DNA of 64,000 bases from Mustelus asterias (Eukaryota). The position numbers and the translations under genes are program-made. Positions 4,616-64,000 of the stretch are shown piece by piece. The stretch spans positions 42,284,001 to 42,348,000 of the forward strand of contig NC_135809.1 of NCBI RefSeq assembly GCF_964213995.1. Direction: 5' to 3'. The stretch's first letter is position 1; each line of letters starts with the position of its first letter. Under the pieces are notes generated by a model that made no database searches, was not told the DNA's origin, and was given only the letters and a program-made list of their open reading frames with translations.

Positions 4616-6822
4616 AACAAAGGAGACTATAAAGGGATGAGGGAGGAGTTGGCCAAGGTGGACTGGGAGCAAAAACTTTATGGTGGGACAATTGAGGAAC
4701 AGTGAAGGACTTTCAAAGCGATCTTTCACAGTGGTCAGCAAAAGTATATACCAGTGATAAGGAAGGACTGTCGAAAAAGAGATAATCAGCCATGGATATC
4801 TAAGGAAATAGAGGAGGGTATCAAATTGAAAGAAAATGCATACAAAGTAGCAAAGATTAGTGGGAACCTAGAGGATTGGGAAATCGTTAAAAGTCAGCAG
4901 AAAGCCATGAAAAAAGCTATAAACAAAGGTAAGATGGATTATGAGAGTAAACTAGCTCAGAATATAAAAACAGATAGCAAAAGTTTCTACAAATATATAA
5001 AATGAAAAAAAGTGGCAAAAGTAAACATTGGGCCTTTAGAGGACAAGAAGGGGAATGTAATAACTGAAAATGAGAAAATGGCTGAGGCATTGAACAGGTA
5101 TTTTGTGTCGGTCTTCACAGTGGAAGACACAAATAACATGCCAAAAATTGATGACAAGAAGGCTATGGCAGGTGAGAACCTAGAAACTATTATCATGAAA
5201 GGGGTAGTGTTGGGCAAGTTAATGGGGCTAAAGGTAGACAAGTCTCCTGGTCCTGATGGAATGCATCCCAGGGTACTAAAAGAGATGGCAGGAGAAATAG
5301 CAAATGCACTAGTGGTAATTTACCAAAATTCGCTGGACTCTGGACAATTCGCAGATTGAAAAACAGCAAATGTGACGCCACTGTTTAAAAAAGGAGGTAG
5401 ACAAAAGGCAGGTAACTATAGGCCGGTTGGCTTAACTTCTATAGTAGGGAAAATGCTTGAATCTATCATCAAGGAAGAAATAGCGAGACATCTGGATATA
5501 AATTGTCCCATTGGTAAGACACAGCATGGGTTCATGAAGGGAAGGTCACATTTGACTAATTTGGTGGAATTCTTTGAGAACATTACATGTGCAGTGGACA
5601 ATGGGGAACCTGTGGATGTGGTGTATCTGGATTTCCAGAAGGCATTTGACAAGGTGCCGCACCAAAGACTGCTACATAAGATAAAGGTACACAGTGTTAC
5701 GGGTAATGTATTAGCATGGATAGAGGATTGGTTAACCAACAGAAAGCAAAGAGTGGGGGTAAATGGGTGTTTTTCTGGTTGGCTATCAGTGACTAGTGGT
5801 GTGCCTCAGGGATCAGTGTTGGGACCGCAATTGTTTACAATTTACATAGATGATTTGGAGTTGGAGACCAAGTGTAGTGTGTCAAAATTCACAGATGACA
5901 CCAAGATGGGTGGCAGAGCAAAGTGTGCAGACGATGCTGAAAGTCTGCAAAGTGATATAGATAGTCTAAGTGAGTGGGCGAGGGTCTGGCAGATGGAGTA
6001 CAATGTTGGTAAATGTGAGGTCATCCATTTTGGTAGGAACAACAGCAAAATGGACTATTATTTAAATGGTAAAAAATTGCAGCATGCTGCTGTGCAGAGG
6101 GAACTGGGTGTCCTTGTGCAGGAATCTCAAGGAGTTTGTTTGCAGGTGCAGCAGGTAATTAAGGAGGCAAATGGGATTTTGTCCTTCATTGCTAGAGGGA
6201 TGGAGTTTAAAAACAGCGAGATTATGTTGCAGCTGTATGAGGTGCCGGTGAGGCCACACCTGGAGTACTGTGTACAGTTTTGGTCTCCTTGCTTGAGAAA
6301 GGATATACTGGCACTGGAGGGGGTGCAGAGGAGATTCACTAGGTTAATTCCGGAGTTGAGAGGGTTGGCTTATGAGGAGAGACTGAGTGGACTGGGGCTA
6401 TACTCATTAGAATTCAGAAGAATAAGGGGAGATCTTATAGAAACATATAAGATTATGAAGGGAATAGATAAGACAGAAGCAGGGAAGTTGTTTCCACTGG
6501 CGGGTGAAACTAGAACTAGGGTGCATAGCCTCAAAATAAGGGGAAGCAGATTTAGGACTGAGTTGAGGAGGAACTTCTTCACACAAAGGGTTGTGAATCT
6601 GTGGAATTCCCTGCCCAGTGAAGCAGTTGAGATTACCTGATTGAATGTTTTTAAGGCAAGGATAGATAAATTTTTGAACAGTAAAGGAATTAAGGGTTAT
6701 GGTGAGCGGGCGGGTAAGTGGAGCCGAGTCCTCAAAAAAATCAGCCATGATCTTATTGAATGGCGGAGCAGGCTTGAGGGGCCAGATGGCCTACTCCTGC
6801 TCCTAGTTCTTATGTTCTTATG
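4616..6822 (+). mobile_element. 5'-truncated CR1 LINE inserted in the L1 RT region
   Basis: ORF2 pieces with KSPGPDG, QHGF, YLDFQKAFD, GVPQGSVLGP and F(T)DD; in-frame stops at about 5005, 5359 and 6640; tail gttcttatgttcttatg. Confidence 0.95.
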
Positions 6823-12206: not shown

Positions 12207-14100
12207 TTAAGAACATAAGAACATAAGAAATAGGAGCAGGAGTAGGCCATCTAGCCCCTCGAGCCTGCCCCGCCATTCAACAAGATTATGGCTGATCTGA
12301 AGCGAATCAGTTCCACTTACCCGCCTGCTCCCCATATCCCTTCATTCCCTTAGCGATCAGAAATCTATCTACCCTCTGAGAGAAGAAGTTCCCCCTCAAC
12401 TCTGTTCTGAACCGGCCCCCAATTATTTTGAGGCTGTGCCCTCTAGTTCTGGTTTCCCTTCTAAGTGGAAATAATTCCTCTACCTCTACCCTATCCAGCC
12501 CCTCCATTATCTTATATGCCTCTATAAGATCACCCCTCAGCCTTCTAAACTCCAACGAGTACAGACCCAATCTGTTCAATCTCTCCTCATAAGCTACACC
12601 CCTCATCTCTGGTATCACCCTGGTGAATCTTCTCTGCACTCCCTCCAAGGCCAATATATCCTTTCGCAAATAAGGGGACCAAAACTGCACACAGTACTCC
12701 AGTTGCGGCCTCACCAGTGCCTTGTATAGTTGCAGCAAGACCTCCCTGCTTTTATCTTCTATCCCCCTCACGATAAAGGCCAACATTCCATTCGCCTTCT
12801 TGATCACCTGCTGCACCTGCAGACTGAGTTTTTGCGATTCGTGCACAAGGACCCCCAGGTCCCTCTGCACAGTAGCATGATGTAATTTTTCTCCATTTAA
12901 ATAATATTCCAATTTACTATTATTTCTTCCAAAGTGGATAACCTCACATTTGCCAATGTTATATTCCATCTGCCAGATCCTCGCCCACTCGCTCAGCCAC
13001 TTCCTTTTTGTCCACTTCCTTTTTTAAACAGCGGCGTAACAGTAGCTGTTTTCCAATCAGCCGGCACTACCCCAGAGCCCAGCGAATTTTGATAAATAAC
13101 TACTAATGCATCTGCTATTACCTCAGCCATTTCTTTCAGTACCCTGGGATGCATTCCATCCGGGCCCGGGGACTTGTCTACCTTCAGTCCCATTAGTCGA
13201 CCAAGCACTACCTCTTTAGTAACAGTAATTGTATTAAGGACCTCACCTCCCACCAACTCTCGATCTCCAATATTCGGTAAACTATTTGTGTCTTCCACCG
13301 TGAAGACTGACACAAAGAACTTATTTAAAGTCTCAGCCATTTCCTCGTTTTCCACTATTAAATCTCCCCTCTCGTCCTCCATGGGTCCAACATTCACTCT
13401 AGCCACTCTATTCCTTTTTATATATTTGTAAAAAACTTTTACTATCATTTTTTATATTTTGAGCTAGTTTAGTTTCATAATCTATCTTTCCTTTCTTAAT
13501 CGCTTTCTTAGTCGTTCTTTGTTGTTTTTTAAAGCTTTCCCAATCCACTAATTCTCCACTATTTTTGGCCACTCTGTACGCATCTGTTTTTATTTTAATA
13601 CTCTCCTTTATTTCCTTCGTTATCCATGTCTGGATATCCCTTTTCTTACATTCCTTCTTTATCACCGGAATATATTTTTGTGAGTACTTAAAAAAATCTC
13701 CTTAAAAATCCTCCACTGTTCCTCAGCTGTCCTACCTACCAGTCTGCTCGCCCAGTCTACATTAGCCAATTCCGCCCTCATCCTATCGTACTCCCCTCTG
13801 TTCAAGCAGAGGACACTGGTTTGGGACCCGACTTTCTCACCCTTCATCTGTATCAGAAATTCAACCATATTATGATCACTCAACCCCAGAGGATCCCTCA
13901 CAAGAAGATCCTTAGTTCTACCTGTCTCATTACACAGTACCAGATCTAAGATAACTCGCTCTCTCCTAGGTTCTGTAACATACTGTTCAATGAAACTATC
14001 CCGACAGCATTCTAAGAACTCTTTCTCAGGCCCTCCACGTCCAATTTGAGTCGACCAATCAATATGCAGGTTAAAATACCCCATGATTATTACCTTTGTT
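12207..14100 (-). mobile_element. 5'-truncated CR1 LINE with internal deletion of the RT core
   Basis: ORFs 13662-14132 (EN: DLVL, SDHN), 12993-13448 (KSPGPDG, TPLFKKG) and 12307-12969 (RT C-terminus); (taagaaca)n tail at 12207-12230. Confidence 0.94.
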
Positions 14101-14129
14101 TCTGCATTTGTTTCAGATTCCAGCATCCA

Positions 14130-14810
14130 CAATATGTTACTTTTATTTTCAGAAGTTCCTCCACTACTGAACTCAAACTGACCAGTCTGTAGTTGTCGGC
14201 TTTATCCTTGCACCCCCTTTTGAACAAGTGTGTAACATTCCCACTTTTTCAGTCTTCTGGCACTACCTGTGACTAATGAAGACTAAAAGGCACCTCTGCA
14301 ACTTCCACACTCTCCCCTCAGTATCCTTGGAGACATCTCATCCAATCCTGGTACCCTATTTGTTTTATGTCAAGATAGCCTAAAACCTTCTCCCTCTCAC
14401 TTGTAAATTCTTCAAATATAGCAGTTACCTCCTCTCTCACTTCAGCCTGGGTAGCATTTCTTCCTTCATAAAGAGAGATACAAAGTACTCATTTAATATT
14501 TCTGCTATTTCTCCTGGTTCCACATGCAAGTCCCCTTCTTTATCCCAAATCAGCCCTACTCTTTCTTTTACCACACATGTATTTTTCATATGCTTATGGA
14601 AGTCTCTGCTCATGATCTCTCCTTGCTATTTGCATTACTTTTTTCACTTCCCCTCTGGTCCTTCTATATTCAGCTTGATAAGACCATAGACATGGGTGCT
14701 GAACTAGGCCATTTGGCCCATCGAGTCTGCTCCGCCATTCAATGAGATCATGACTGATCTGATGTGATAATCCTCAATGTCACTTTCTTGCTTTATCCCC
14801 ATAACTCTGT
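14130..14810 (-). mobile_element. Old CR1 fragments (ORF2 remnant plus a 3' UTR piece)
   Basis: gaactcaaactgaccagtctgtagtt (NYRxVSL remnant) and the CR1 3' UTR motif ggccatttggcccatcgagtctgctccgccattcaat. Confidence 0.7.
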
Positions 14811-16966: not shown

Positions 16967-17386
16967 TTGATCCACTGGAGCAAGCTGAGAGGGGTGATTG
17001 AAGGCAGCAGTGCTGGTGAGAGATTAATTGAATTGTTTATTTATTTAATTAGTCAGCTAGTGTGTGTATTTTTTTGGCCTTTACTTTAACAGCAGTTTTT
17101 CAAGTTTAAAGTGAAAACTAGAAGTGGGCAGCAAAGGAGTCTGGGAAGGGTTTTTATTTTAACTTTAAAAGTCAGTTACCTGGGAGGTTCCCCCTCATTG
17201 ATCCACTGGAGCAAGCTGAGAGGGGTGATTGAAGGCAGCAGTGCTGGTGAGAGATTAATTGAATTGTTTATTTATTTAATTAGTCAGCTAGTGTGTGTAT
17301 TTTTTTGGCCTTTACTTTAACAGCAGTTTTTCAAGTTTAAAGTGAAAACTGGAAGTGGGCAGCAAAGGAGTCTGGGAAGGGTTTTT
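16967..17386 (+). repeat. Near-perfect direct duplication of about 190 bp (period 231) in the CR1 5' UTR
   Basis: ttgatccactggagcaagctgagagggg...ctgggaagggttttt at 16967-17155 and 17198-17386; I see one substitution (ctagaag/ctggaag). Confidence 0.93.
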
Positions 17387-17579
17387 TAAGCGCGTGAAGT
17401 ATAAAAGGTAGGCTGCAGTATACAGCGGGCAGCGTCGGGAGCGGGCAGTGGAGTGTGTGGGAAGCAGAGTGTGAGCTATAAGACTTTGGCTCACAGGGCT
17501 TAGGCTGAAAGGGCGAGCAGGGGTGAGTTGAATTCACTTTTGCACTTTCTACCTGGTACTGGCAAGGTATCTCGAGGGG

Positions 17580-18506
17580 ATGGGTGTGCAGGCAGTGCAA
17601 TGTTCCTCTTGCACTATGTTTGAGGTGAGGGACGACGACAGTGTCCCTACTGATTACACCTGTGGGAAGTGCACCCATCTGCAGCTCCTCCAAAACCGTG
17701 TTAGGGAACTGGAGCTGGAGTTGGATGAACTTAGGATCATCAGGGACGCAGAGATGGCCATAGACACAAGCTTTAGGAATACAGTTACTCCGAGGATTGA
17801 AAACAGATGGGTGACGGTGAGAGGGGCTGGGAGGAAGCAGTCCGTGCAGGGATCCCCGGTGGTCGTTCCCCTTAGCAACAAGTATTCCGCTTTGGATACG
17901 GTTGAGGGGGATGACATACCAGTGGGGAGCCGCAGTGAGAGGATCTCCAGCACTGTGTCCGTCTCTGTGGCTCGGGAGGGAAAGGGGGAGAGCGGGAGGG
18001 CGATAGTTATTGGGGACTCGTTAGTTAGAGGGATAGATAGGAGGTTCTGTGGCAGCAAAAGAGACTCACGGATGGTATGTTGCCTACCGGATGCCAAGGT
18101 CCGTGATGTCTCAGACCGTGTTTTCCAGATTCTGAAGGGGGAGGGGAAACAGTCACAAGTCGTGGTGCACATTGGTACCAATGACATAGGTAAGAGAAGG
18201 GACGGGGATTTAAAGCAGGAATTTCTGGAGCTGGGCTGGAAGCTGAGAGCCAAGACGAAACATGTGGTCATCTCTGGTACGTTGCCGGTACCACGTGATA
18301 GCGAGTTGAGGAACAGGGAGAGAGAGCAGTTAAATATGTGGTTGCAGGGATGGTGTAGGAGGGAGGGTTTCAGATACGTGGATAATTGGAACACGTTCTG
18401 GGGAAGGTGGGACCTGTACAAACAGGACGGGGTGCACCTGAACCAGAGGGGCACCAATATCCTCGGAGGGAAATTTGTTACGGCTCTTCAGGGGGGTTTA
18501 AACTAA
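17580..18506 (+). CDS. CR1 ORF1p: CxxC-x16-CxxC zinc finger, coiled coil and SGNH/GDSL esterase domain (308 aa)
   Basis: CSSC...CGKC, LQNRVRELELELDELR, esterase blocks IGDSLVRG, HIGTND and DGVHLN. This is the known esterase-type ORF1 of CR1-clade LINEs. Confidence 0.93.
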   Translation: MGVQAVQCSSCTMFEVRDDDSVPTDYTCGKCTHLQLLQNRVRELELELDELRIIRDAEMAIDTSFRNTVTPRIENRWVTVRGAGRKQSVQGSPVVVPLSNKYSALDTVEGDDIPVGSRSERISSTVSVSVAREGKGESGRAIVIGDSLVRGIDRRFCGSKRDSRMVCCLPDAKVRDVSDRVFQILKGEGKQSQVVVHIGTNDIGKRRDGDLKQEFLELGWKLRAKTKHVVISGTLPVPRDSELRNREREQLNMWLQGWCRREGFRYVDNWNTFWGRWDLYKQDGVHLNQRGTNILGGKFVTALQGGLN

Positions 18507-18565
18507 TTTGTCAGGGGAGTGGGAAAGGGAGTTGAAGTCCAGAAGTCAGTGAGGGTGGTGAGGTA

Positions 18566-21400
18566 TTGGGGAAGGTATCAGGGTCAAGGGTGGGTACTGG
18601 TAGACAGGAAGGTGGGTTGAAGTGTATCTACTTCAATGCAAGGAGCATCCGGAACAAGGTAGATGAACTTGGGGCGTGGATTGGTACTTGGGACTACGAT
18701 GTTGTGGCCATTACGGAGACGTGGGTAGAACAAGGACAGGAATGGTTGTTGGACGTTCCGGGGTATAGATGTTTCAGTAAGTGTAGGGAAGCTGGTAAAA
18801 GAGGTGGAGGAGTGGCATTGTTAATCAAGGATAGTTTAACGGCTGCGGAAAGGCACTTCGTGGGGGATCTGCACACTGAGGTAATATGGGCTGAAGTTAG
18901 AAATAGGAAAGGAGCGGTCACGTTGCTAGGAGTTTACTATAGGCCCCCAAATAGTAATAGAGATGTGGAGGAAGAAATTGCTAAGCAGATTATGGATATG
19001 TGTGGGGGTCACAGGGTAGTTGTCATGGGGGACTTTAACTTTCCAAATATTGATTGGAACCTTTGTAGGTCAAATAGTTTGGATGGGGCAGTTTTTGTGC
19101 AGTGTGTGCGGGAGGGTTTCCTGACACAATATGTGGATGGGCCGACTAGAGGTGAGGCCACATTGGATTTGGTACTGGGAAATGAACCGGGCCAAGTGTT
19201 AGATTTGGTTGTGGGAGAGCAATTTGGAGATAGTGACCACAATTCGGTGTCTTTTGTTATTGCAATGGAGAGGGATAGGGCCGTACGGCAGGGCAAGGTT
19301 TACAATTGGGGGAGGGGTAATTATGATGCGATTAGGCAAGAATTAGGGGGCATAAGTTGGGAACAGAAACTGTCAGAGAAAGGAACTAATGAAAAGTGGA
19401 ACTTTTTCAAGGAACAAATACTGGATGTCCTTGATAGGTATGTTCCTGTCAGGCAGGGAGGAAATGGCCGAGTGAGGGAACCATGGTTCACAAAAGAGGT
19501 GGAATGTCTTGTGAAAAGGAAGAGGGAAGCTTATGTAGGGATGAGGAAACAAGGTTCAGATGGCTCGATTGAGGGTTACAAGTTAGCAAGGAATGAGCTG
19601 AAAAAGGGGCTTAGGAGAGCTAGGAGGGGACATGAGAAGTCCTTGGCGGATCGGATCAAGGAAAACCCCAAGGCTTTTTACTCTTATGTGAGGAATAAAA
19701 GAATGACCAGGGTGAGGTTAGGGCCGGTCAAGGACAGTAGTGGGAACTTGTGTATGGAGTCAGTAGAGATAGGCGAGGTGATGAATGAATACTTTTCTTC
19801 AGTGTTCACCAAGGAGAGGGGCCATGTTTTTGAGGAAGAGAAGGTGTTACAGGCTAATAGGCTGGAGGAAATAGATGTTCGGAGGGAGGATGTCTTGGCA
19901 GTTTTGAATAAACTGAAGGTCGATAAGTCCCCTGGGCCTGATGAAATGTATCCTAGGATTCTGTGGGAGGCAAAGGATGAGATTGCAGAGCCTTTGGCGT
20001 TGATCTTTGGGTCCTCGCTGTCCACGGGGATGGTGCCAGAGGACTGGAGAATGGCGAATGTTGTTCCTCTGTTTAAGAAAGGGAATAGAAATGACCCTGG
20101 TAATTATAGACCGGTTAGTCTTACTTCGGTGGTTGGTAAATTGATGGAAAGGGTCCTTAGGGATGGGATTTACGACCATTTAGAAAGATGCGGATTAATC
20201 CGAGATAGTCAGCACGGATTCGTGAAGGGCAAGTCGTGCCTCACAAATTTGATAGAATTTTTTGAGGAGGTAACTAAGTGTGTTGATGAAGGTAGGGCAG
20301 TTGATGTCATATACATGGATTTTAGTAAGGCGTTTGATAAGGTCCCCCATGGTCGGCTTATGATGAAAGTGAGGAGGTGTGGGATAGAGGGAAAGTTGGC
20401 CGATTGGATAGGTAACTGGCTGTCTGACCGAAGACAGAGGGTGGTGGTCGATGGAAAATTTTCGGATTGGAGGCAGGTTGCTAGCGGTGTGCCGCAGGGA
20501 TCAGTGCTTGGTCCTCTGCTCTTTGTGATTTTTATTAATGACTTAGAGGAGGGGGCTGAAGGGTGGATCAGTAAATTTGCTGATGACACCAAGATTGGTG
20601 GAGTAGTGGATGAGGTGGAGGGCTGTTGTAGGCTGCAAAGAGACATAGATAGGATGCAAAGCTGGGCTGAAAAATGGCAAATGGAGTTTAACCCTGATAA
20701 ATGTGAGGTGATTCATTTTGGTAGGACTAATTTAAATGTGGATTACAGGGTCAAAGGTAGGGTTCTGAAGACTGTGGAGGAACAGAGAGATCTTGGGGTC
20801 CATATCCACAGATCTCTAAAGGTTGCCAGTCAAGTGGATAGAGCTGTGAAGAAGGCCTATAGTGTGTTAGCTTTTATTAACAGGGGGTTGGAGTTTAAGA
20901 GCCGTGGGGTTATGCTGCAACTGTACAGGACCTTGGTGAGACCACATTTGGAATATTGTGTGCAGTTCTGGTCACCTCACTATAAGAAGGATGTGGAAGC
21001 GCTGGAAAGAGTGCAGAGGAGATTTACCAGGATGCTGCCTGGTTTGGAGGGTAGGTCATATGAGGAAAGGTTGAGGGAGCTAGGGCTGTTCTCTCTGGAG
21101 CGGAGGAGGCTGAGGGGAGACTTAATAGAGGTGTATAAAATGATGAAGGGGATAGATAGAGTGAACGTTCAAAGACTATTTCCTCGGGTGGATGGAGCTA
21201 TTACAAGGGGGCATAACTATAGGGTTCGTGGTGGGAGATACAGGACGGATATCAGAGGTAGGTTCTTTACGCAGAGAGTGGTTGGGGTGTGGAATGGACT
21301 GCCTGCAGTGATAGTGGAGACAGACACTTTAGAAACATTTAAGCGGTTATTGGATAGGCACATGGAGCACACCAGGATGATAGGGAGTGGGATAGCTTGA
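18566..21400 (+). CDS. CR1 ORF2p: APE endonuclease plus reverse transcriptase (944 codons; true start uncertain, track start is TTG)
   Basis: FNARSIRNK, ITETW, GDFN, SDHN, KSPGPD, QHGF, YMDFSKAFD, GVPQGSVLGP and FADD all intact, with no internal stop. Confidence 0.95.
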   Translation: MGKVSGSRVGTGRQEGGLKCIYFNARSIRNKVDELGAWIGTWDYDVVAITETWVEQGQEWLLDVPGYRCFSKCREAGKRGGGVALLIKDSLTAAERHFVGDLHTEVIWAEVRNRKGAVTLLGVYYRPPNSNRDVEEEIAKQIMDMCGGHRVVVMGDFNFPNIDWNLCRSNSLDGAVFVQCVREGFLTQYVDGPTRGEATLDLVLGNEPGQVLDLVVGEQFGDSDHNSVSFVIAMERDRAVRQGKVYNWGRGNYDAIRQELGGISWEQKLSEKGTNEKWNFFKEQILDVLDRYVPVRQGGNGRVREPWFTKEVECLVKRKREAYVGMRKQGSDGSIEGYKLARNELKKGLRRARRGHEKSLADRIKENPKAFYSYVRNKRMTRVRLGPVKDSSGNLCMESVEIGEVMNEYFSSVFTKERGHVFEEEKVLQANRLEEIDVRREDVLAVLNKLKVDKSPGPDEMYPRILWEAKDEIAEPLALIFGSSLSTGMVPEDWRMANVVPLFKKGNRNDPGNYRPVSLTSVVGKLMERVLRDGIYDHLERCGLIRDSQHGFVKGKSCLTNLIEFFEEVTKCVDEGRAVDVIYMDFSKAFDKVPHGRLMMKVRRCGIEGKLADWIGNWLSDRRQRVVVDGKFSDWRQVASGVPQGSVLGPLLFVIFINDLEEGAEGWISKFADDTKIGGVVDEVEGCCRLQRDIDRMQSWAEKWQMEFNPDKCEVIHFGRTNLNVDYRVKGRVLKTVEEQRDLGVHIHRSLKVASQVDRAVKKAYSVLAFINRGLEFKSRGVMLQLYRTLVRPHLEYCVQFWSPHYKKDVEALERVQRRFTRMLPGLEGRSYEERLRELGLFSLERRRLRGDLIEVYKMMKGIDRVNVQRLFPRVDGAITRGHNYRVRGGRYRTDIRGRFFTQRVVGVWNGLPAVIVETDTLETFKRLLDRHMEHTRMIGSGIA

Positions 21401-22097
21401 TCTTGGTTTCAGATAAAGCTCGGCACAACATCGTGGGCCAAAGGGCCTGTTCTGTGCTGTACTGTTCTATGTTCTATGTTCTATATCAGGTTACAGGGCC
21501 AGCCAGAAACCAGAAGCGACGTTTCCCAGATGGTCCTGCTACAGTTTTGAAGCCAATACAATAATAATGAGGACCGTTGGAGAGAAGTAAATATTGGTGA
21601 AGTCTGGAGGAGGAGGAAGTTAAACGGGCCCTAAATCCTGGGGGCTGGTTGGGTGGAAAGTATGGCCCCTGAGACTAAAATGAATGAAGAATGAATTCAT
21701 TCTCAAGTATATAATGTGTAGCAGAATAATTTTTTTGGGACTAGATATTAAGTAATTAATTTCTTTGTATTTTTCAAATACAGGTTACTGAGTGATTTGG
21801 GTCGTTTAGAGCGCATTATCAAATTTGATGTTAATATCAGTCCAACTTAAAACTTTTGCTGTCAAATCGTAATTAAGAGCATTGAGCACACTTGAATGCA
21901 AAATTGGTGTTAAAATCTTTGGTTTGGGATAGTGCCCATTGGGAGTAAGAACATAAAAAAAGTGTAATTCTGAATTATTTTTGAGGTACAAGGATACCTT
22001 GAACCTAGTTTTTCTGAGCCATATATACCTGCACAGTGGACCAATTCTGCTAGATCAAGCAACCCGTTCAATACTGGTAGAGTTAAATGCAAACATC

Positions 22098-24790: not shown

Positions 24791-25725
24791 ATGTTTTGGC
24801 CGCAACTGTCTTCTGGGTAACGAATTCCACAGGCTTACCACTCTCTGGGTGAAGAAATTTCTCCTCATCTCAATCTTGAAAGGTTTACCCAATATCCTGA
24901 GACTATGACCTCTGGTTCTGAACACCTCCACCATTGGGAACATCCTTCCTGCATCTATTCTTTCTAGCCCTGTTAGAATTTTATAGGTTTCTATTAGAAT
25001 CCCCCTCTAAACTCCAGCGAACATAATCCTAACCAATTCAATCTCTCCTTACAAGTCAGTCCCACATCACAGGAATTAGTCTGGTAAACTTTCTCTGCAC
25101 TCCAATAGAGCAAGGACATCCTTCGTCAGATAAGGAGACCAAAACTTCACACAATATTTCAGGTATGGCCTCACCAACATCCTATATAATTGTAGCAAGA
25201 CATTCCTGCTCTTGTACTCGAATCCTCTCGCTATTAAGGCCAACATACCATTTGCCTTGTTTACTGTTGCTGCACCTGCATGCATACCTTCAGCAACTGG
25301 TGTACGAGGACACACAGGTCTCCTAGCACATTTCCCTCTCAATTTGTAGCCATTCAGGTAATAATCTGTCTTCCTGTTTTTGCCAAAGTGGATAACATCA
25401 CATTTATTCACATGACACTGCATCTGCCGTGCATTTGCCCACTCACTCAGCTTATCCAAATCACACTAAAGCATCTCTCCATACTCCTCACAACTCATCC
25501 TCCCACCCAACTTTGTGTCATCTGCAAAGTTGGAGATAATACATTTAGTTCCCTCCCCTAAAACATTAATATATATTGTGAATAGTTGGATTCCCAGCTC
25601 CAATTCCTGCAGTCCTTCACTAGTCACTCCTTGTTATTTGGAAAGAGATCCGTTTATTCCTACTTTTGGTTTCTTTTCTGCCAACCACTTTTCGATCCAT
25701 CTCAATACATTGTACCCAATCCACC
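24791..25725 (-). mobile_element. CR1 RT fragment, decayed
   Basis: ORF pieces RTRGHSLRI..RRNFFTQRVVSLWNSLP and DKLSEWA..ANGMLALIARG..LVRPYL; FADDTK at about 25520. Confidence 0.88.
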
Positions 25726-26087
25726 ACTAGCACTCCCATCTCTAATGACTGGCACAATTCCTATTCTTTTGCCGACCACTAGCTTCATTGAGCTAGCACT
25801 GCCCCAGGATTCTCTGACCTCTAGTTTCCTGACTGCACATAACTATAAAAGGCTCCCAGGGCTTCTCCTGAGCCTTAACCTTCTCCCGCATGGAACCAGT
25901 GACATTCTGCCACTTTCTCAGCTGCATAGAACTTCTCCTGCGCCCTAACTGCCTGGAGTCTAACAGCTCCAAGAGCTTCTCTATGAGCTGCAAACTACAT
26001 GGGGTCCAAACCGCAACACCCAGCTACAAATAATGGTTCTCAGGGCTTCTCCCAGCTCTAAGTGCCCAGAGTCTGTGAACAGTTTCT

Positions 26088-27283
26088 GGTTGCTGTGACA
26101 GGGTTGTGTGGTGTCGTGGTCACTGTTCTCCTGAAGGCTGGGTAGTTTGCTGCGGACAATGGTCTGTTTGAGGTTGTGCGGTTGTTTGAAGGCAAGAAGT
26201 GGGGGTGTGGGGATGACCTTGGCGAGATGATCGTCTTCATCAATGACATGTTGAAGGCTCCAGAGGAGATGCCGTAGCTTCACCGCTCCGGGGAAGTACT
26301 GGACGACGAAGGGTACTCTGTCCACCGTGTCCCGTGTTTGACTTCTGAGGAGGTCGGTGCGGTTTTTCGCTGTGGCGCGTTGGAACTGTTGATCGATGAG
26401 TCGAGCGCTATATCCTGTTCTTATGAGGGCATCTTTCAGGGTCTGGAGGTGTCTGTTGCGATCCTCCTCATCCGAGCAGATCCTGTGTATACGGAGGGCT
26501 TGTCACGACACCACACAACCCTGCCACAGCAACCTCTGCAAGACGTGCCAGATCATCGACACAGACGCCATCATCTCACATGAGAACACCATCCACCAGG
26601 TACACGGTACATACTCTTGCAACTCGGCCAACGTTGTCTACCTGATACGCTGCAGGAAAGGATGTCCCGAGGCATGGTACATTGGGGAAACTATGCAGAC
26701 GCTGCGACAACGGATGAATGAACACCGCTCGACAATCACCAGGCAAGACTGTTCTCTTCCTGTTGGGGAGCACTTCAGCGGTCACGGGCATTCAGCCTCT
26801 GATATTCGGGTAAGCGTTCTCCAAGGCGGCCTTCACGACACACGACGGCGCAGAGTCGCTGAGCAGAAACTGATAGCCAAGTTCCACACACGAGGACAGC
26901 CTCAACCGGGATATTGGGTTCATGTCACACTATTTGTAATTCCCCACAGCCTGCCTGGACCTGCAGAGTTTCACTGGCTGTCCTGTCTGGAGACAATACA
27001 CATCTCTTTAGCCTGTCTTGATGCTCTCTCCACTCACATTGTTTGTATCTTAAAGACTTGATAGCTGTAAGTATTCGCATTCCAACCATTATTCATGTAA
27101 ATTGAGTTTGTGTCTTTATATGCCCTGTTTGTGATCAGAATTCCCACTCACCTGAAGAAGGGGCTTGGGGCTCTGAAAGCTTGTGTGGCTTTTGCTACCA
27201 AATAAACCTGTTGGACTTTAACCTGGTGTTATTAAACCTCTTACTGTGTTTACCCCAGTCCAACGCCGGCATCTCCACACCAT
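26088..27283 (+). mobile_element. Penelope-like element (Neptune-type, Cys-rich linker plus GIY-YIG) with inverted 5' segment (26088-26502 on the minus strand)
   Basis: Minus arm QALRIHRICSDEED...RVPFVVQYFPG...HDTTQPCHSN. Plus arm HDTTQPCHSNLCKTC...VVYLIRC..WYIGET..LRQRMNEHR, then the pLTR with a hammerhead-like motif and aataaa. Confidence 0.92.
27144..27190 (+). ncRNA. Minimal hammerhead-ribozyme-like motif in the Penelope pLTR
   Basis: CTGAAGA (27152-27158), short stem ggggc/gctct, GAAA (27175-27178), palindromic AAGCTT. Hammerheads are an established feature of Penelope pLTRs. Confidence 0.6.
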
Positions 27284-40329: not shown

Positions 40330-43045
40330 TCCGATACTGGGGGTGTCGGGGAGATAAAAAAGCATGAGAAACAGCGAGATGGAGAGTGGAGCCGGGGAAA
40401 TAAAAGAGCCTTACCTTGATCCATTACACAGGGAGTATTGTGGGAGCTGCACTTGGTGACATCACAAGTTCAAAAGTGATGTTTTGGACAGAAGGGCTCC
40501 TGATTGATAAATGGTGGTCTGGTGATTTTTTTCCTTACCTTCAATTTCCATTCATTTTCATACCTATGAAGTTTTAGAGTAGTGGGATTTCGGCTAATGA
40601 TTGACTAATACAGTGCTGGGATTTAGAGTAGTACCTAGGCTGTTGTTTACAGATTAGTGTATTTAGTACTTTTATAGTGAGAATCGAACACTAGGGACCA
40701 TCTAGTTAGCTGTAAATTAATTTACTAGAAATACATTTTTCATTAAATAGTTGCTAGAGAGCAAAAATGGCAGTCAGCAGGGTAATAGGCTTCTCCTGTA
40801 GAATTTGGGATATCCGAGACAGTTCAAATGCCTCTGACAACTATATCTGCAGTAAGTGTGACCAATCGCAGTTCCTGTCAGACCGCATGGATCGGTGGGA
40901 GCAGAGTTGGACACACAGGAGCATGCAGGCTGTGGAAAGCATCGTAGTCAGGAGTTTGAGAGATGAGGTCTCACCCAAGGTTCAGGCAGATAGATGGGTA
41001 ACCACAAGAAGGGGCAGGCAGACAGTGCAGAAGTCCCCTGTGGCTATCCCTCTCACTAACAACTTTCCGTTTTGGATGTTGGGGGGGAAGGCGGGGGTAT
41101 TGCCTATCAGGGGAAGGTGATAGCAGTAGCCAGAGAGGTGGTGCCACCACTAGCTCTGTTGTACTGTAATAGGGGACTCTATAATCAGGGACACAGACAG
41201 GCATTTCTGCAGGCGCAAAACAGACTCCAGGATGGTGCATTGCCTCCCTGGTGCCTGGGTCAAGGATGTGTGTCTCTGAGCAGGTGCAGAACATTCTCAA
41301 AAGGGAAGGTGAGCAGCCAGAGGAAGTGGAAGACATTGGCACCAACAACATAGGCAAAAAGAGTGACGAGATCCTGCAAAGGGAGTTAGGTAGTAAGTTG
41401 AAAAGTAGGACCTCTAGGGTTGTAGTCTCAGGATTACTCTGTGCTATATGCCAGTGAAGCTAGGAATAGGAAGATAGTACATTAAATATGTGGCTAAAGG
41501 GCTGGTGTAGGAGGGAGGGCTTCAGATGTGTGGATCATTGAGATGTCTTCCAGGGCAGGTGGGACCTGTACAAGGAGGATGGGTTGCACCTAAACTGGTG
41601 GGGCACCAATATCCTGGCAGGGAGGTTTGCTAGTGTCACTCAGGAGGGTTTAGTGTGGCAGAGGGGTGGGAACCAGAGCAATAGGTCAGCAAGTGAAATG
41701 ACTGAGGGAGAGTTAGAGACTACAGCCAATGAGACTAAGAGGAAGAACAGATTGGGAAAGGTTACTGAAAACAGCAGGACTGGCGGTCTGAAATGCATTT
41801 GTTTTAATGTGAGGAGGATAACAAGAAAGGCAGATGAACTTAAAGCTTGGATTAGTAAATATAACCATGATATTGTAGTAATTACAAAGATCTGGTTGAG
41901 AAAGGGACAAGACTGGCAGCTCAACATTCTGGGATTTAGATGTTTCAGGTGTGACAGAGAGGGATGTAAAAGAAATGGCGGAGTTGTGTTACTGATGAGG
42001 AAGAATATCACAGCTGTACTGAGGGAGGACACCTTGGAGGACTCATCCAGTGAAGCCATATGGATAGAGCTCAGGAATAGGAAGGGTGAAATCACTTTGA
42101 TTTGATTGTACTACAGGCCTCCCAACAGCTAGCAGGGAATAGAGGAACAATTATGTGGACAGATTATGGAAACATGTAAAAACAACAGCGTTGTTGTGGT
42201 GGGTTATTTTAGCTTACCCTATATTGACTGGGACTCCCTTAGTGCCAGGAGCTTATATAGGAGGGTTTCTTGAAGCAATGATCCAACTCGGGAAGGGGCC
42301 ATACTAAACCGGATATTGGAGAATGAGCCCAAAGTTTCAATGGGGGGGGGGGGCATTTCGGGAACAGGGACCATAATTCCATAAGTTTTAAGTTATGGAG
42401 AAGGATCAAAGTAATCCTCGGATGAAAGTACTAAAGTGGGGGTAGGCTAACTACAACAAACATTAGGCAGGAACTGGGAATGGAGATAAGGAATGGTTGT
42501 TTGAAGGTATATCCACATCTGTCACGTGGGAATCTTTTAAAGGCCGGTTGATTAGAATTCAGGGCCAGCATGTTCCTGTGATACTGAAGGATAAGGATGG
42601 CAAGATTCAGGAACCTTGGATGACAACAGAAATTGTGAGCTTAGTCAAAAAGAAAAAGGTTTAGAAGACTGCAGACAGACGGAGCCCTCAAAGCACATAA
42701 AGAAAACAGGAAAGAACTTAAACAAGTTAGCAGGGCTAAAAAAACCATGAAACGTCTTCAGCAGACAGGATTAAGGAAGAATCCCAAGGCATTTTATACA
42801 TATATAAGGAGCAAGAAGGTAGCTAGGGAGAGGATAGGTCCACTCAAGGTCAAAGGAGGGAATCTATGCGTGGAGCCAGAGAAAGTGGGTGAGGTCCTTA
42901 ACAAATACTTGGCATCGGTCTTCACAAAGGAGAAGGACACAGTGGATGCTGAGTCTAGAGAGGGGTATGTTGATATTCTAGGGCATGTGGGTGTGAAGAA
43001 GGTGGTGTTGGGTGTTTTGAAAAGTATTATGTTAAACAAGTTCCA
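40330..43045 (+). mobile_element. Decayed CR1 (5' UTR, esterase ORF1, EN and tether; RT lost)
   Basis: ORF1 remnants CSKC, DRWVTTRRG, IGTN and HLN..GTNILAGRF; ORF2 GLKCICFN, WIELRNRKG and NPKAFYTYIRSK. Paralogous to 16967-21484. Confidence 0.9.
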
Positions 43046-60129: not shown

Positions 60130-62832
60130 TCTCAGCTGATTCTATACAGAATTGTTGCAGTGCAGGAGGTCAGTCGGCCCATTGTGTCTGCACCAGCACT
60201 GCAAATGAGCATTTCACCTAGTGTTACTCTCCTGCCTTCTCCTTATTGCCCTTCAGTTTGTTTTTTAAAAAATAATTATCTAATTCCCTCTTAAATGCCC
60301 CCATTAAACCTGCCTCCAGCACTCTCTCAGGAAGTGCATTTCAGACCCTAACCACTCACTGTGTGAAAAATTATTTTCTCATATCTCTTTTAACAGACTA
60401 GGTGAAAAGGTAAAACTGCGGCAGATGGATTTAAATCTAAACAAGCATGAGGTTATTCATTTTGGACCGAAAAAGAATAGATCAGAGTACTTTCTCGATG
60501 GTATGAAGTTAAATACAGTAGATGTCCAAAGAGACTTGGGGGTTCAGGGGCATAGACCTTTAAAATAAGAAGGCTAATGGAATGCTAGCCTTGAAATCCA
60601 GAGGACAAATACAAGGATGCAGAAGTTATGCTGCTGCTATATAAAACCCTGGTTAGACCCCACTTAAAAAGTACTGTGAGCAGATCTGGGCACAACACCT
60701 TAGGAAGGATATACTGGCCTTGGACAGAGTGCAACGTCGGTTTCCAAGAATGATACCTGGAGTTTAGGGTTTTAATTATAGGAGAGATTATACAAATTAA
60801 ATCTGATTTCTCTAGAATTTAGAAGATTAAGGGCTGATTCAATCAAAGACTTCAAGTTACCAACAGGAAAATACAGGGTAGATAAAGATAAACTGTTTCC
60901 ACTGATTGGAAATTCTAGAACTAGGGGGCATAGTCTAAAAATTAGACCATTCAGGAGAGATGTTAGGAAGCACTTTTACATACAAAGGGTGCTAGAGGTT
61001 TGGAACTCTCTTCCACAAACATCAGTTGATGCTAGATCAGTTGCTATCTTTATTTAAATCTGGGTTAGATTTATTTTGTTAAGCAAAGGTATTAAGGGAT
61101 CTGGGCCAAAGACAGGTATCTGAAGTTAGGCCACAGATCAGCCATGATCTCATTAAATGGTGGAACATACTCGATGGGCTGAATGACCTACTCCTGTTCA
61201 GATGTTGACTCTTTTGTCGGTGACTTTATATGTGTACAGTCGTTCATGGTCCTTTCAGTAGGAACAGTTTCTCTTTATATACTTTGTCCAGACCCTTCAT
61301 GATTTTGAATACAACGATCAAATCTCCTCTCAGCCTTCATTTCTCCATAAAAATAATCCCAACTTCACGAATTTTACTTCATAACTCAAGTTGCTCATCC
61401 CTGGAAACATTGTTGTAAACCTCTTCTGCACCCTCTGCAATTTCTTCACATCTTTCCGAAATGCAGTGCCCAGAATTGTACATAATGTTTCAGCTGAGGT
61501 CTAACTGGTGTCAAATACAAATTGAACATTAGCTCCTTGCTCTTATACTCTATGCCCCTATTTGATAAAGCCGAGGACATTGTTTTTTAACTGCTGTCTC
61601 AACCATCCTATTATCTTTCATGACTTATGCACATATACACGCAGGTCCCTCTGCGCTGTTCCCTATCTCCGTGCATAAATTCCCTTTTTGATCCCTAATT
61701 CGCTGTTTGTTTTACCACCCTTTGAGTATTTAGATAGCTGTAGAAAACTTGGAATTCTTTTTTTATATTGCCTGCCAGTCCTTTTTCATACCATCTATGG
61801 GTGGGATTTTCTGGCCACCCGAAAACCAGAAAATCCTGCCTGAGGTCAACGGGCCTTGGCATGGTTTGCCTCCCGCCCATTACGATTCTCGTGGCGGGCG
61901 TGATGGGAAAATTCCTCCCTTTGTTTATTCCTTTCCCTTCTGAACTTTGATATTCAGCCTGGTTCTCCATTGTATTATCCACCTAATACCAGTCATAAAC
62001 ACACTTTCTCTTCTTTATCTTCATTTCTATCTCCTTTTTCATCCAGGAAGCTCTGGATTTATTGGTCCTATCTTTCCCTTTTGAGGGAATATACCTTGAC
62101 TGTGTCTGAACCGTCTCTTTGAAGGTAGCTACCATTTCTCCTGCCAACATTTGGTTCCAATTTATTCAGCTTAGGTTCATTCTTACCCCATTGAAGTTAG
62201 TTTCCCCCCAAATAATTCTTACTCAGGATTGTTCATTGTACTTTTCCATGGTCATCTTGAACCTTGTGATATAATGATCAGTGTCCTCTAAATGTTCTTC
62301 CACTGACAGTATCTATTTAGCCCACCTCATTGTCGTGAACTATGTTTTGCAGTGCCTCCATTCTTGTTGGACTGGACACATTCCTTAACACACTTGAGGA
62401 ACTCTTGCCCAACTCTGCCCTTTATATGGCCATTATATTCAGGTAAAGTCCCCAATTATAACTACTCTTTAATTTTTGCACCTCTCTGGAATTTCCTCGC
62501 AGATTTGCTCCTCTACATCCTTCCTACTAGTTGATGGCCGAACAACTACACCAGACAATGTAACTGTATCTTTTTTGTTCTTTAGCTCTTTCTTTAGCAG
62601 TATCAAACATATTATGTCCTTGACCCCTTTGGGATATTGTTCTCCAACACTGCAATGCTTTCCTTAATCAATATTGCCACCTCTTCCTCTTTAGTTCATT
62701 TTGAACCTTTCCTGAACATTTTGTATCCAGGAATATTTAATACCCAGTCCTGCCCTTTCTTGGGCCAGGTTTCTGTTAGAGCCACGCTGCCATAATTCCA
62801 CATGGCAATCTGCACCTGTAATTCACTGATCT
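60130..62832. mobile_element. Cluster of CR1 fragments: 60130-60390 (-), 60400-61205 (+), 61230-61680 (-), 61680-62832 (-, EN/tether)
   Basis: WQM.FN..K.EVIHFG, LVRPHL and 3' UTR gatcagccatgatctcatt on +; VALTETW..GQDWVLNIPGY on - (62696-62878). Confidence 0.82.
61798..61916. mobile_element. Short MITE-like repeat, copy 2, inserted in a CR1 fragment
   Basis: gggattttctggcc...gggaaaattcc termini; reverse-complement homolog of 11306-11441. Confidence 0.6.
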
Positions 62833-62851
62833 TACATACATACACAGTAAT

Positions 62852-63065
62852 AAAAGCAAAATACAGCCAATGCTGCAAATCAGAAATAAAACCAGAAAAT
62901 GCTGGATAAACTCAGCAGGTCCGGCAGTAGCTGTGGAGAGGGAAACAGAGTTAACATTTCAAGTCCATAGAACTGTACTGAAAGGGTCATAAGGAGTCGA
63001 AACAGTAACATCATTTCTCGCTCCACTGATCTGCTGAGTTTATCCAGTATTTTCTGTTTTAATTA
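62852..63065. repeat. Palindromic element made of inverted Penelope pLTR-type arms
   Basis: cagaaaatgctggataaactcagcag (about 62893-62918) pairs with ctgctgagtttatccagtattttctg (63031-63056). Confidence 0.75.
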
Positions 63066-63077
63066 CATACACAGGAA

Positions 63078-63294
63078 GTAAAAGTAAAGGTGCCATAGTC
63101 CCAGATGACTATAGGCTGCTCTCCCCTTTGAGACGGGGAGCTGACTGATGGTCATTTAACCTGAGGATCATTATGCTTTGAATAAAGGGCAAAGTTGAGA
63201 AGGCAGGGCTTTCATGAATAAGTTCAGCCAGTACGGGAATTGAACGCATGCTGTTGATGCTGCACTGCATCACAAATCAGCCATCCAGCCAACT
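63078..63294 (-). mobile_element. tRNA-derived SINE of a third family
   Basis: Reverse complement reads cagttggctggatggctg..(box A-like)...gttcaattccc (box B-like)...tail ctatggcacctttactttt. Confidence 0.6.
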
Positions 63295-64000
63295 GGAGGC
63301 CTGTGACTAGTGGTGTTCCGCAGGGCTCTGTATTGGGACCTCTGCTGTTTGTGATTTATATAAACGATCTGGAAGAAGGTGTAACTGGGGTGATCAGTAA
63401 GTTTGCGGACGACACGAAAATGGCTGGACTTGCACATGGTGAGGGACATTGTCAGAGGCTACAGAAGGATATAGATAGGCTGGAAATTTGGGCAAAGAAA
63501 TGGCAGATGGAGTTCAATCCAGATAAATGCGAAGTGATGCATTTTGGTAGAACTAACGTACGGGGGAGCTATACGATAAATGACAGAACCATAAAGGGTG
63601 TAGATACGCAGAGGGACCTGGGTGTGCAAGTCCACAGATCCTTGAAGGTGACGCCTCAGGTGCAGAAGGTAGTGAAGAAGGCATATGGCATGCTTGCCTT
63701 TATAGGACGGGGCACAGAGTATAAAAGTTGGGGTCTGATGTTGCAGTTGTATAGAACGTTGGTTCGGCCGCATTTGGAATACTGCGCCCAGTTCTGGTCA
63801 CCACACTACCAGAAGGACGTGGAGGCTTTAGAGAGAGTACAGAGGAGGTTTACCAGGATGTTGCCTGGTATGGAAGGGCTTAGTTATGAGGAGGGATTGG
63901 GTAAACTGGGATTGTTCTCACTGGAAAGATGGAGGATGAGGGGTGACCTAATAGAGGTGTATAAAATTATGAAAGGCATAGATAGGGTGAACGGTGGGAA
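63292..64000 (+). mobile_element. 5'-truncated CR1 RT fragment running off the window
   Basis: VTSGVPQGSVLGPLLFVIYINDLEEG..SKFADDTK..WQMEFN..LVRPHLEYCAQFWSP. Confidence 0.93.

Follow-up and report, generated by a model that had tools for sequence, protein, structure and literature searches.

How the reverse transcriptase (RT) of a CR1-type long interspersed nuclear element (LINE) is translated from the second open reading frame (ORF) of its RNA is the question raised by a 64,000-nt stretch of the shark Mustelus asterias (contig NC_135809.1, positions 42,284,001 to 42,348,000; hereafter the window). A full-length CR1 LINE occupies about 16967-21484 of its plus strand, ORF1 for an esterase protein (17580..18506) being followed by ORF2 for an APE endonuclease plus RT (18497..21400). 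ORF2 lies in the -1 frame relative to ORF1, as an earlier note on this DNA had stated and as the reading frames and the Pfam endonuclease and RT matches agree. The translation of LINE ORF2 is termed an open question in a passage of PMC3894237. Judged from sequence, the present CR1 family quite probably makes ORF2 by programmed -1 ribosomal frameshifting, yielding an esterase-endonuclease-RT fusion protein.

The signal proposed for this frameshift is located at the very end of ORF1, which reads GGT TTA AAC TAA. The slippery heptamer T_TTA_AAC (18497..18503, plus strand as all features of the element) stands in exact X_XXY_YYZ phase with ORF1 and adjoins the stop codon TAA (18504..18506), as had been noticed before. 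Among the lineages introduced below, the stop is TAA in six, TAG in ten and TGA in none. A linker of 113 nt (18504..18616) leads in the -1 frame to the endonuclease and contains a G-rich motif, GGGG-R-R-W-GGG-R-A, as candidate 3' stimulator (18514..18525; +11 to +22), as well as a TGA in the -1 frame (18533..18535), downstream of which ORF2 of the window copy is open (18536-21400). The first in-frame ATG of ORF2, at 18992, is indeed preceded by the endonuclease motifs NARS and ITETW; it is, however, not codon 143 as previously given, but codon 166 when counting starts at the heptamer, or 153 when it starts at 18536. The combined pattern of heptamer, TA and GGGG matches the window once against 0.06 matches expected, and 4 of 100 shuffles reach one match; this pattern was derived from the site itself, and the real test is conservation across lineages.

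The shark genome was searched with divergent ORF1 proteins and metagenome contigs with an ORF1 alignment, the last six query residues being removed for anchoring. From the first 197 loci, 16 without ORF1 C-terminus and 4 duplicates were set aside, and the remaining 177 were scored: TTTAAAC followed by TAA or TAG is present in 149, TTTAAAT in 11, a changed stop in 8 and something else in 7, while 2 are cut off. The copies were grouped into 12 shark and 4 bird-like lineages (the latter matching best to a kittiwake protein), with 18 representatives used for the linker and identity comparisons and 16 for the later analyses. Over the C-terminal 90 residues of ORF1, identity amounts to 47-97 % among sharks and to 21-35 % between shark and bird-like representatives. 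Nevertheless, all 16 lineage representatives have TTTAAAC followed by TAA or TAG and read TTT AAA CTA in the -1 frame. Controls were those columns of the last 150 ORF1 codons (n = 29) in which 13 or more of the 16 rows share one degenerate amino acid; 28 of them use several codons, the only single-codon column being one Cys. In ORF1 of the same representatives, TTA accounts for 28 of 218 Leu codons (13 %) and AAC for 37 of 87 Asn codons. The codon preceding TTA varies in meaning (Gly, Ser, Cys, Thr, Asp, Ala), yet ends in T in the majority of every lineage. Heptamer and stop are thus retained beyond the need to encode Leu-Asn, a check that the earlier note had proposed. Since the lineages are related, these counts are not independent draws, and the control columns share the same relatedness.

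According to the earlier note, the TGA at 18533 would have to be a mutation of this particular copy, and comparison with sister copies shows it to be private to it. Over 321 bases, just two positions separate the window from its 29 best other matches, and 18535 is one of them. These matches were chosen by similarity, and the codon was therefore also counted in all family copies (n = 48), where it reads TGT in 46, TGC in one, TTG in one and TGA in none. A distant protein query yielded 20 loci, two of them without readable junction, and TGT is found in all 18 others. From the heptamer onward, the -1 frame is open in 46 of the 48 family copies and closed in the window copy, which is therefore unable to make the ORF1-ORF2 fusion on account of its own TGA. 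Two sister copies (L237 and L238) are open over 967 codons from the heptamer, and the difference between one of them and the window, 19 of 3,821 bases, indicates that the CR1 family is young.

Linkers between stop and endonuclease range from 92 to 230 nt in the other lineages and are mostly unalignable between lineages. In all nine lineages with a clear mode, the modal length (113, 116, 119, 137, 137, 179, 125, 134 and 128 nt) keeps the endonuclease in the -1 frame. Among 187 copies with measurable linker, 133 are in the -1 frame and open; copies were placed by resemblance to a junction template, which favours the motif, not the frame. Taken together, the linkers of the 16 representatives, which were selected partly for openness, contain one stop in the -1 frame compared with 32 in frame 0 and 67 in the +1 frame; on account of this selection, a product of open-frame probabilities over the linkers is disregarded as evidence. 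Upstream of the heptamer, the -1 frame is closed at a distance of 2 or 5 codons in 10 of 18 representatives, with no ATG in between, and an ORF2 start inside ORF1 is therefore generally impossible. An in-frame ATG before the first endonuclease motif is absent in 10 of the 18, and the remaining eight have it at codon 3, 4, 22, 25 or 38. ORF2 is without a start codon common to the lineages.

Downstream of the stop, seven variable bases precede the G-rich motif, with no change in length between shark and bird-like lineages. GGG at +12-14 and at +18-20 is the majority in 16 of 16 lineages and is found in 15 and 16, respectively, of the 16 single representatives; for comparison, GGG makes up 31-37 % of the Gly codons in four ORF2s. 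As to the G-runs pointed out earlier, their start at 18514, 10 nt past the heptamer, holds, whereas the third and fourth runs of the window copy are not conserved.

Traces of the same junction may be recognized at the protein level beyond these lineages. A C-terminal LN is present in 36 of 52 ORF1 homologues, and of 147 representatives at 50 % clustering, 57 end in LN, 9 in GN and 2 in KN, many of the others being fragments or members of other families. Records with snake, snapping turtle, lizard and monitor in their names are among those ending in LN. Directly before LN, one of the residues E, K, Q, M and W, whose codons never end in T, stands in only 1 of 36 and 1 of 57 cases, the corresponding shares over positions -10 to -4, a crude background, being 18 % and 15 %. 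All nine GN-ending proteins end in Q-G-N. If encoded by CAG GGA AAC, this terminus would provide another slippery site, G_GGA_AAC, and K-N would fit A_AAA_AAC; both fit the frameshift model as predictions.

In case of programmed frameshifting, most ribosomes would read ORF1 and halt at TAA or TAG, releasing ORF1p. A minority would pause when AAC occupies the A site and UUA the P site, move back by one base and thereby bypass the stop, then translate the linker and produce a fusion of ORF1p and ORF2p about 1,270 residues long; for the window family, the predicted junction peptide is ...G-L-N followed by L-I-C-Q-G.... Both the adjacent stop and the linear G-rich motif, located 10 nt downstream, would probably cause the pause, the motif most likely acting via a protein bound to it. 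The Gag-Pol-like CR1 fusion by -1 frameshifting suggested in the earlier note is supported at this level of comparison, and the two sequence-level refutations named there, concerning the TGA and synonymous change in the heptamer, both failed to refute it.

Frameshifting into the -1 frame is itself an already known mechanism. The coronavirus and arterivirus 1a/1b junctions and retroviral gag-pol, as described in parts of a review (PMC5009743), resemble CR1 in the U_UUA_AAC heptamer, in the structural protein coming first and in a polymerase in the -1 frame. These viral sites rely on a hairpin or pseudoknot shortly downstream, whereas in CR1 none is conserved and the stop follows directly. A parallel for the stimulator may be nsp2TF of the virus causing porcine reproductive and respiratory syndrome (PRRSV), for which a section of the same review describes nsp1beta and PCBP as binding CCCANCUCC, 11 nt 3' of the shift site (PMC5009743). 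The CR1 motif likewise is linear and starts at +11, but it is G-rich rather than C-rich, and the CR1 binding protein is hypothetical. Among non-long-terminal-repeat retrotransposons of the APE type, Dictyostelium TRE5-A and TRE3-A require a -1 frameshift for ORF2 according to a statement in a review (PMC5911963). This likeness refers to the review statement rather than to the slippery-site sequence, and these elements differ from CR1 in being amoebozoan, in targeting tRNA genes and in having another ORF1.

Esterase-type CR1 LINEs (type IV, CR1 subgroup 7 in the relevant part of PMC4120745; ZfL2-1 esterase, PDB 4c1b) have the same two ORFs, with Cys motif, coiled coil and SGNH esterase in ORF1, APE endonuclease and RT in ORF2, and a microsatellite tail. 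At keyword level, the word frameshift does not occur in the accessible text of PMC3905857, PMC4120745, PMC4316615 and PMC8665684, and the junction signal is undescribed there. The portion covered of the frameshifting review makes no mention of CR1 (PMC5009743), and an open literature search returned no report of CR1 frameshifting; the founding CR1 papers, which possibly remark on the overlap, are outside that search. Novelty in print of a CR1 frameshift site is therefore uncertain.

The main alternative to frameshifting is termination followed by reinitiation: ribosomes halting at the ORF1 stop would restart in the -1 frame at UAAUG, at a nearby AUG or at a non-AUG codon and form a separate ORF2p. 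The bicistronic RNAs of SART1 and L1 are comparable to that of CR1, a UAAUG overlap likewise places ORF2 in the -1 frame (SART1; passage in PMC3894237), and the start of L1 ORF2 is thought to be independent of its AUG (portion of PMC5009743). However, SART1 and L1 yield separate proteins, and the window family reads TAATT at the stop; TAATG is found in only 2 of 16 representatives, those of the shark lineages S5 and S8, which are not sisters, and in the other 14 the stop-overlapping codon varies freely (ATT, ATA, GTG, GTT, GAA, GAT, GGT, GAC, GCT). At 96 nt upstream of the stop, 8 of 16 representatives have UGGGA, a sequence linked to calicivirus reinitiation, but it results from Trp-Asp codons and is absent in the other 8. 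Reinitiation leaves the fixed TTA and AAC codons and the preceding T unexplained. It is accordingly improbable as the general route to ORF2, even though both processes may coexist in some lineages.

Splicing from a donor in ORF1 to an acceptor behind the stop (CAG/GGG at +11) would produce a shortened mRNA with ORF1 and ORF2 in frame, and the conserved bases would then represent branch point, acceptor and G-run enhancer. Indeed, ACTAA is branch-point-like, AG stands at +10/+11 in 13 of 16 representatives, and 6 of 16 have, 429 nt upstream, a donor-like site sharing the frame of the acceptor. Yet the AG is absent in S3a, S3b and B2, a pyrimidine tract is lacking, only 8-9 nt separate the putative branch A from the AG, the donor-like site results from conserved M-V-C codons, and half of the esterase would be removed; neither the X_XXY_YYZ phase nor Q-G-N is accounted for, and this explanation is very unlikely. 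None of the 15 joints shown out of 26 in contigs from four runs has GT..AG ends, and one of these contigs spans 17484-19229 without gap; this counts neither for nor against splicing, the RNA status of these contigs being a guess and contigs dropping rare forms. Least probable of all is the absence of any RNA signal, with L-N and F-K-L-x-x-x-G-x-G retained through shared ancestry or because the protein needs them, and the heptamer a coincidence. In its favour, 31 of the 44 LN-ending proteins have a tail of 26 residues between DGxH motif and stop, related lineages share codons through descent, and the element is G-rich (GC skew 0.45). Protein constraint alone, however, does not stand up to the comparison of codons: of the 29 control columns with equal conservation, 28 show synonymous change over the same lineages. 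Furthermore, L-N lies outside the predicted ORF1p fold, the last helix of the model ending at residue 304 with G-G-L-N trailing behind; two esterase homologues on contigs of metagenome-assembled genomes (MAG), located behind other long ORFs and with no long ORF seen after them, end in RKA and SMK; and ORF2 expression would be left unexplained.

Programmed frameshifting is thus preferred, and the following points weigh against it. Local folding behind the heptamer is no better than in shuffles (mean z 0.11, 16 representatives, pseudoknots being outside the model); a three-tier G-quadruplex is possible in none of the 16 representatives and a two-tier one in 4 in the model; and no recurring long-range partner downstream is found in 26 longer loci, which include many broken copies. 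Thirty-eight of the 187 measurable linkers are off-frame and a further 16 have a stop in the -1 frame, while the S5 and S6 linkers are too decayed for a clear modal length. Seven of the eleven TTTAAAT copies form one set of near-identical damaged S5 copies. Reinitiation is possible in S5 and S8, which carry TAATG, and in three of the four bird-like representatives, where an AUG lies in frame four bases past the stop. The partial selection of representatives for open linkers and the relatedness of lineages, over which counts are not independent trials, also apply here, and the non-shark DNA consists of a few bird-like metagenome contigs. DNA of Q-G-N families was not found in viral contigs, plasmids, phages, genome contigs or the shark genome, the search of the latter returning only the family of the window.

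CR1 is the dominant LINE of birds and makes up 11.8 % of chicken chromosomes according to the part covered of PMC11835228. If frameshifting holds, the CR1 enzyme would be a fusion with ORF1p, ORF2 annotations beginning at an internal ATG would be truncated, and 'intact' CR1 copies would have to be judged by their junction. The cassette of about 35 nt may also reveal, in vertebrate cells, a frameshift stimulator that is new and depends on a protein. One may speculate further, although this extended version is on balance doubtful, that an ancient cassette is shared across jawed-vertebrate CR1, consisting of U_UUA_AAC, a stop, seven free bases and a structure-free G motif that would recruit a host or element protein and set the ratio of ORF1p to ORF1p-ORF2p. 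Distant families would have switched to G_GGA_AAC or A_AAA_AAC, and the RT, joined to the esterase ORF1p in a Gag-Pol-like fusion, would travel with it.

Judged by the general anatomy of CR1 and by the homology of its ORF1 to records from birds, turtles and squamates, the element in the window is an ordinary esterase-type CR1; named relatives of its ORF1 are from sharks, rays and skates. ORF1 (ATG at 17580) encodes 308 amino acids with Cys motif, coiled coil and SGNH esterase (PF13472, E 1.6e-12) and the C-terminus G-G-L-N, and its profile matches PDB 4c1b, an ORF1-encoded protein, at E 5e-37. In the predicted ORF1p model, a helix (residues 29-69) and a folded domain (141-304) are apparent. 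The window ORF1 (17580-18503) reads CCLPDA where most relatives read CCLPGA and retains the esterase motifs GDS, GTND and DGxH. For ORF2, the endonuclease matches PF03372 at E 1.6e-22 and the RT PF00078 at E 7.3e-33. The 5' untranslated region (UTR; 16967..17579) opens with a tandem unit of about 231 bp, and sister copies match from 16967 onward. Both units are identical in 188 of 194 compared bases, and sister copies hold one or two of them; we take this arrangement to be reminiscent of rodent L1 monomer promoters. The stretch 16967-17428 comprises the units and, after them, TATAAAAG at 17400. As read from the sequence, the short 3' UTR (21401..21484) ends in a (GTTCTAT)-type microsatellite tail without poly(A).

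Several observations concern relatives of the element. The damaged TTTAAAT copies of lineage S5 (L101, L106, L108-L110, L112 and L117) have common ORF1 stops and reside mostly on small contigs, some with a tandem repeat in the linker; they look as if they had spread via DNA duplication, not retrotransposition. Matches to the Q-G-N queries in genome contigs were rejected as bacterial esterases or chance matches, and no ORF1 relatives occur in the viral contigs searched. Nine matches among longer proteins were considered as natural in-frame ORF1-ORF2 fusions; the named ones are bird or frog gene models, and none is informative. The homologues ending in RKA and SMK (L056, 3800-4378; L057, 3821-4372) lie on Sedimenticola MAG contigs behind three long overlapping ORFs, a layout which we take to suggest a eukaryotic DIRS/Ngaro-like element, i.e., host DNA within the bins. 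One shark-type CR1 ORF1 (P0007), 70 % identical to that of the window, carries the NCBI label of a Pseudomonas aeruginosa SGNH hydrolase, its contig being 4 kb long, and is probably a contamination.

Elsewhere in the window, none of the 10 ORFs of at least 170 amino acids is a long non-repeat ORF. In a second CR1 copy, old and broken (40767-42959; 77 % to lineage S10), five bases are missing from the heptamer-stop block, and at its junction (about 41645-41675) the ORF1 end runs in frame into linker and endonuclease; this loss is probably a private deletion. Among 279 loci, the same in-frame pattern is found only in L042, a bird-like metagenome locus without ORF1 C-terminal match. Many further CR1/L2-type ORF2 fragments are present, e.g., at 4619-6703, 12370-14668 and 60362-63992. 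The region 24815-27061 contains an RT fragment on the minus strand together with ORFs bearing a YIGET...LRQR stretch, which we take to be a GIY-YIG-like motif, the region presumably representing a Penelope-like element.

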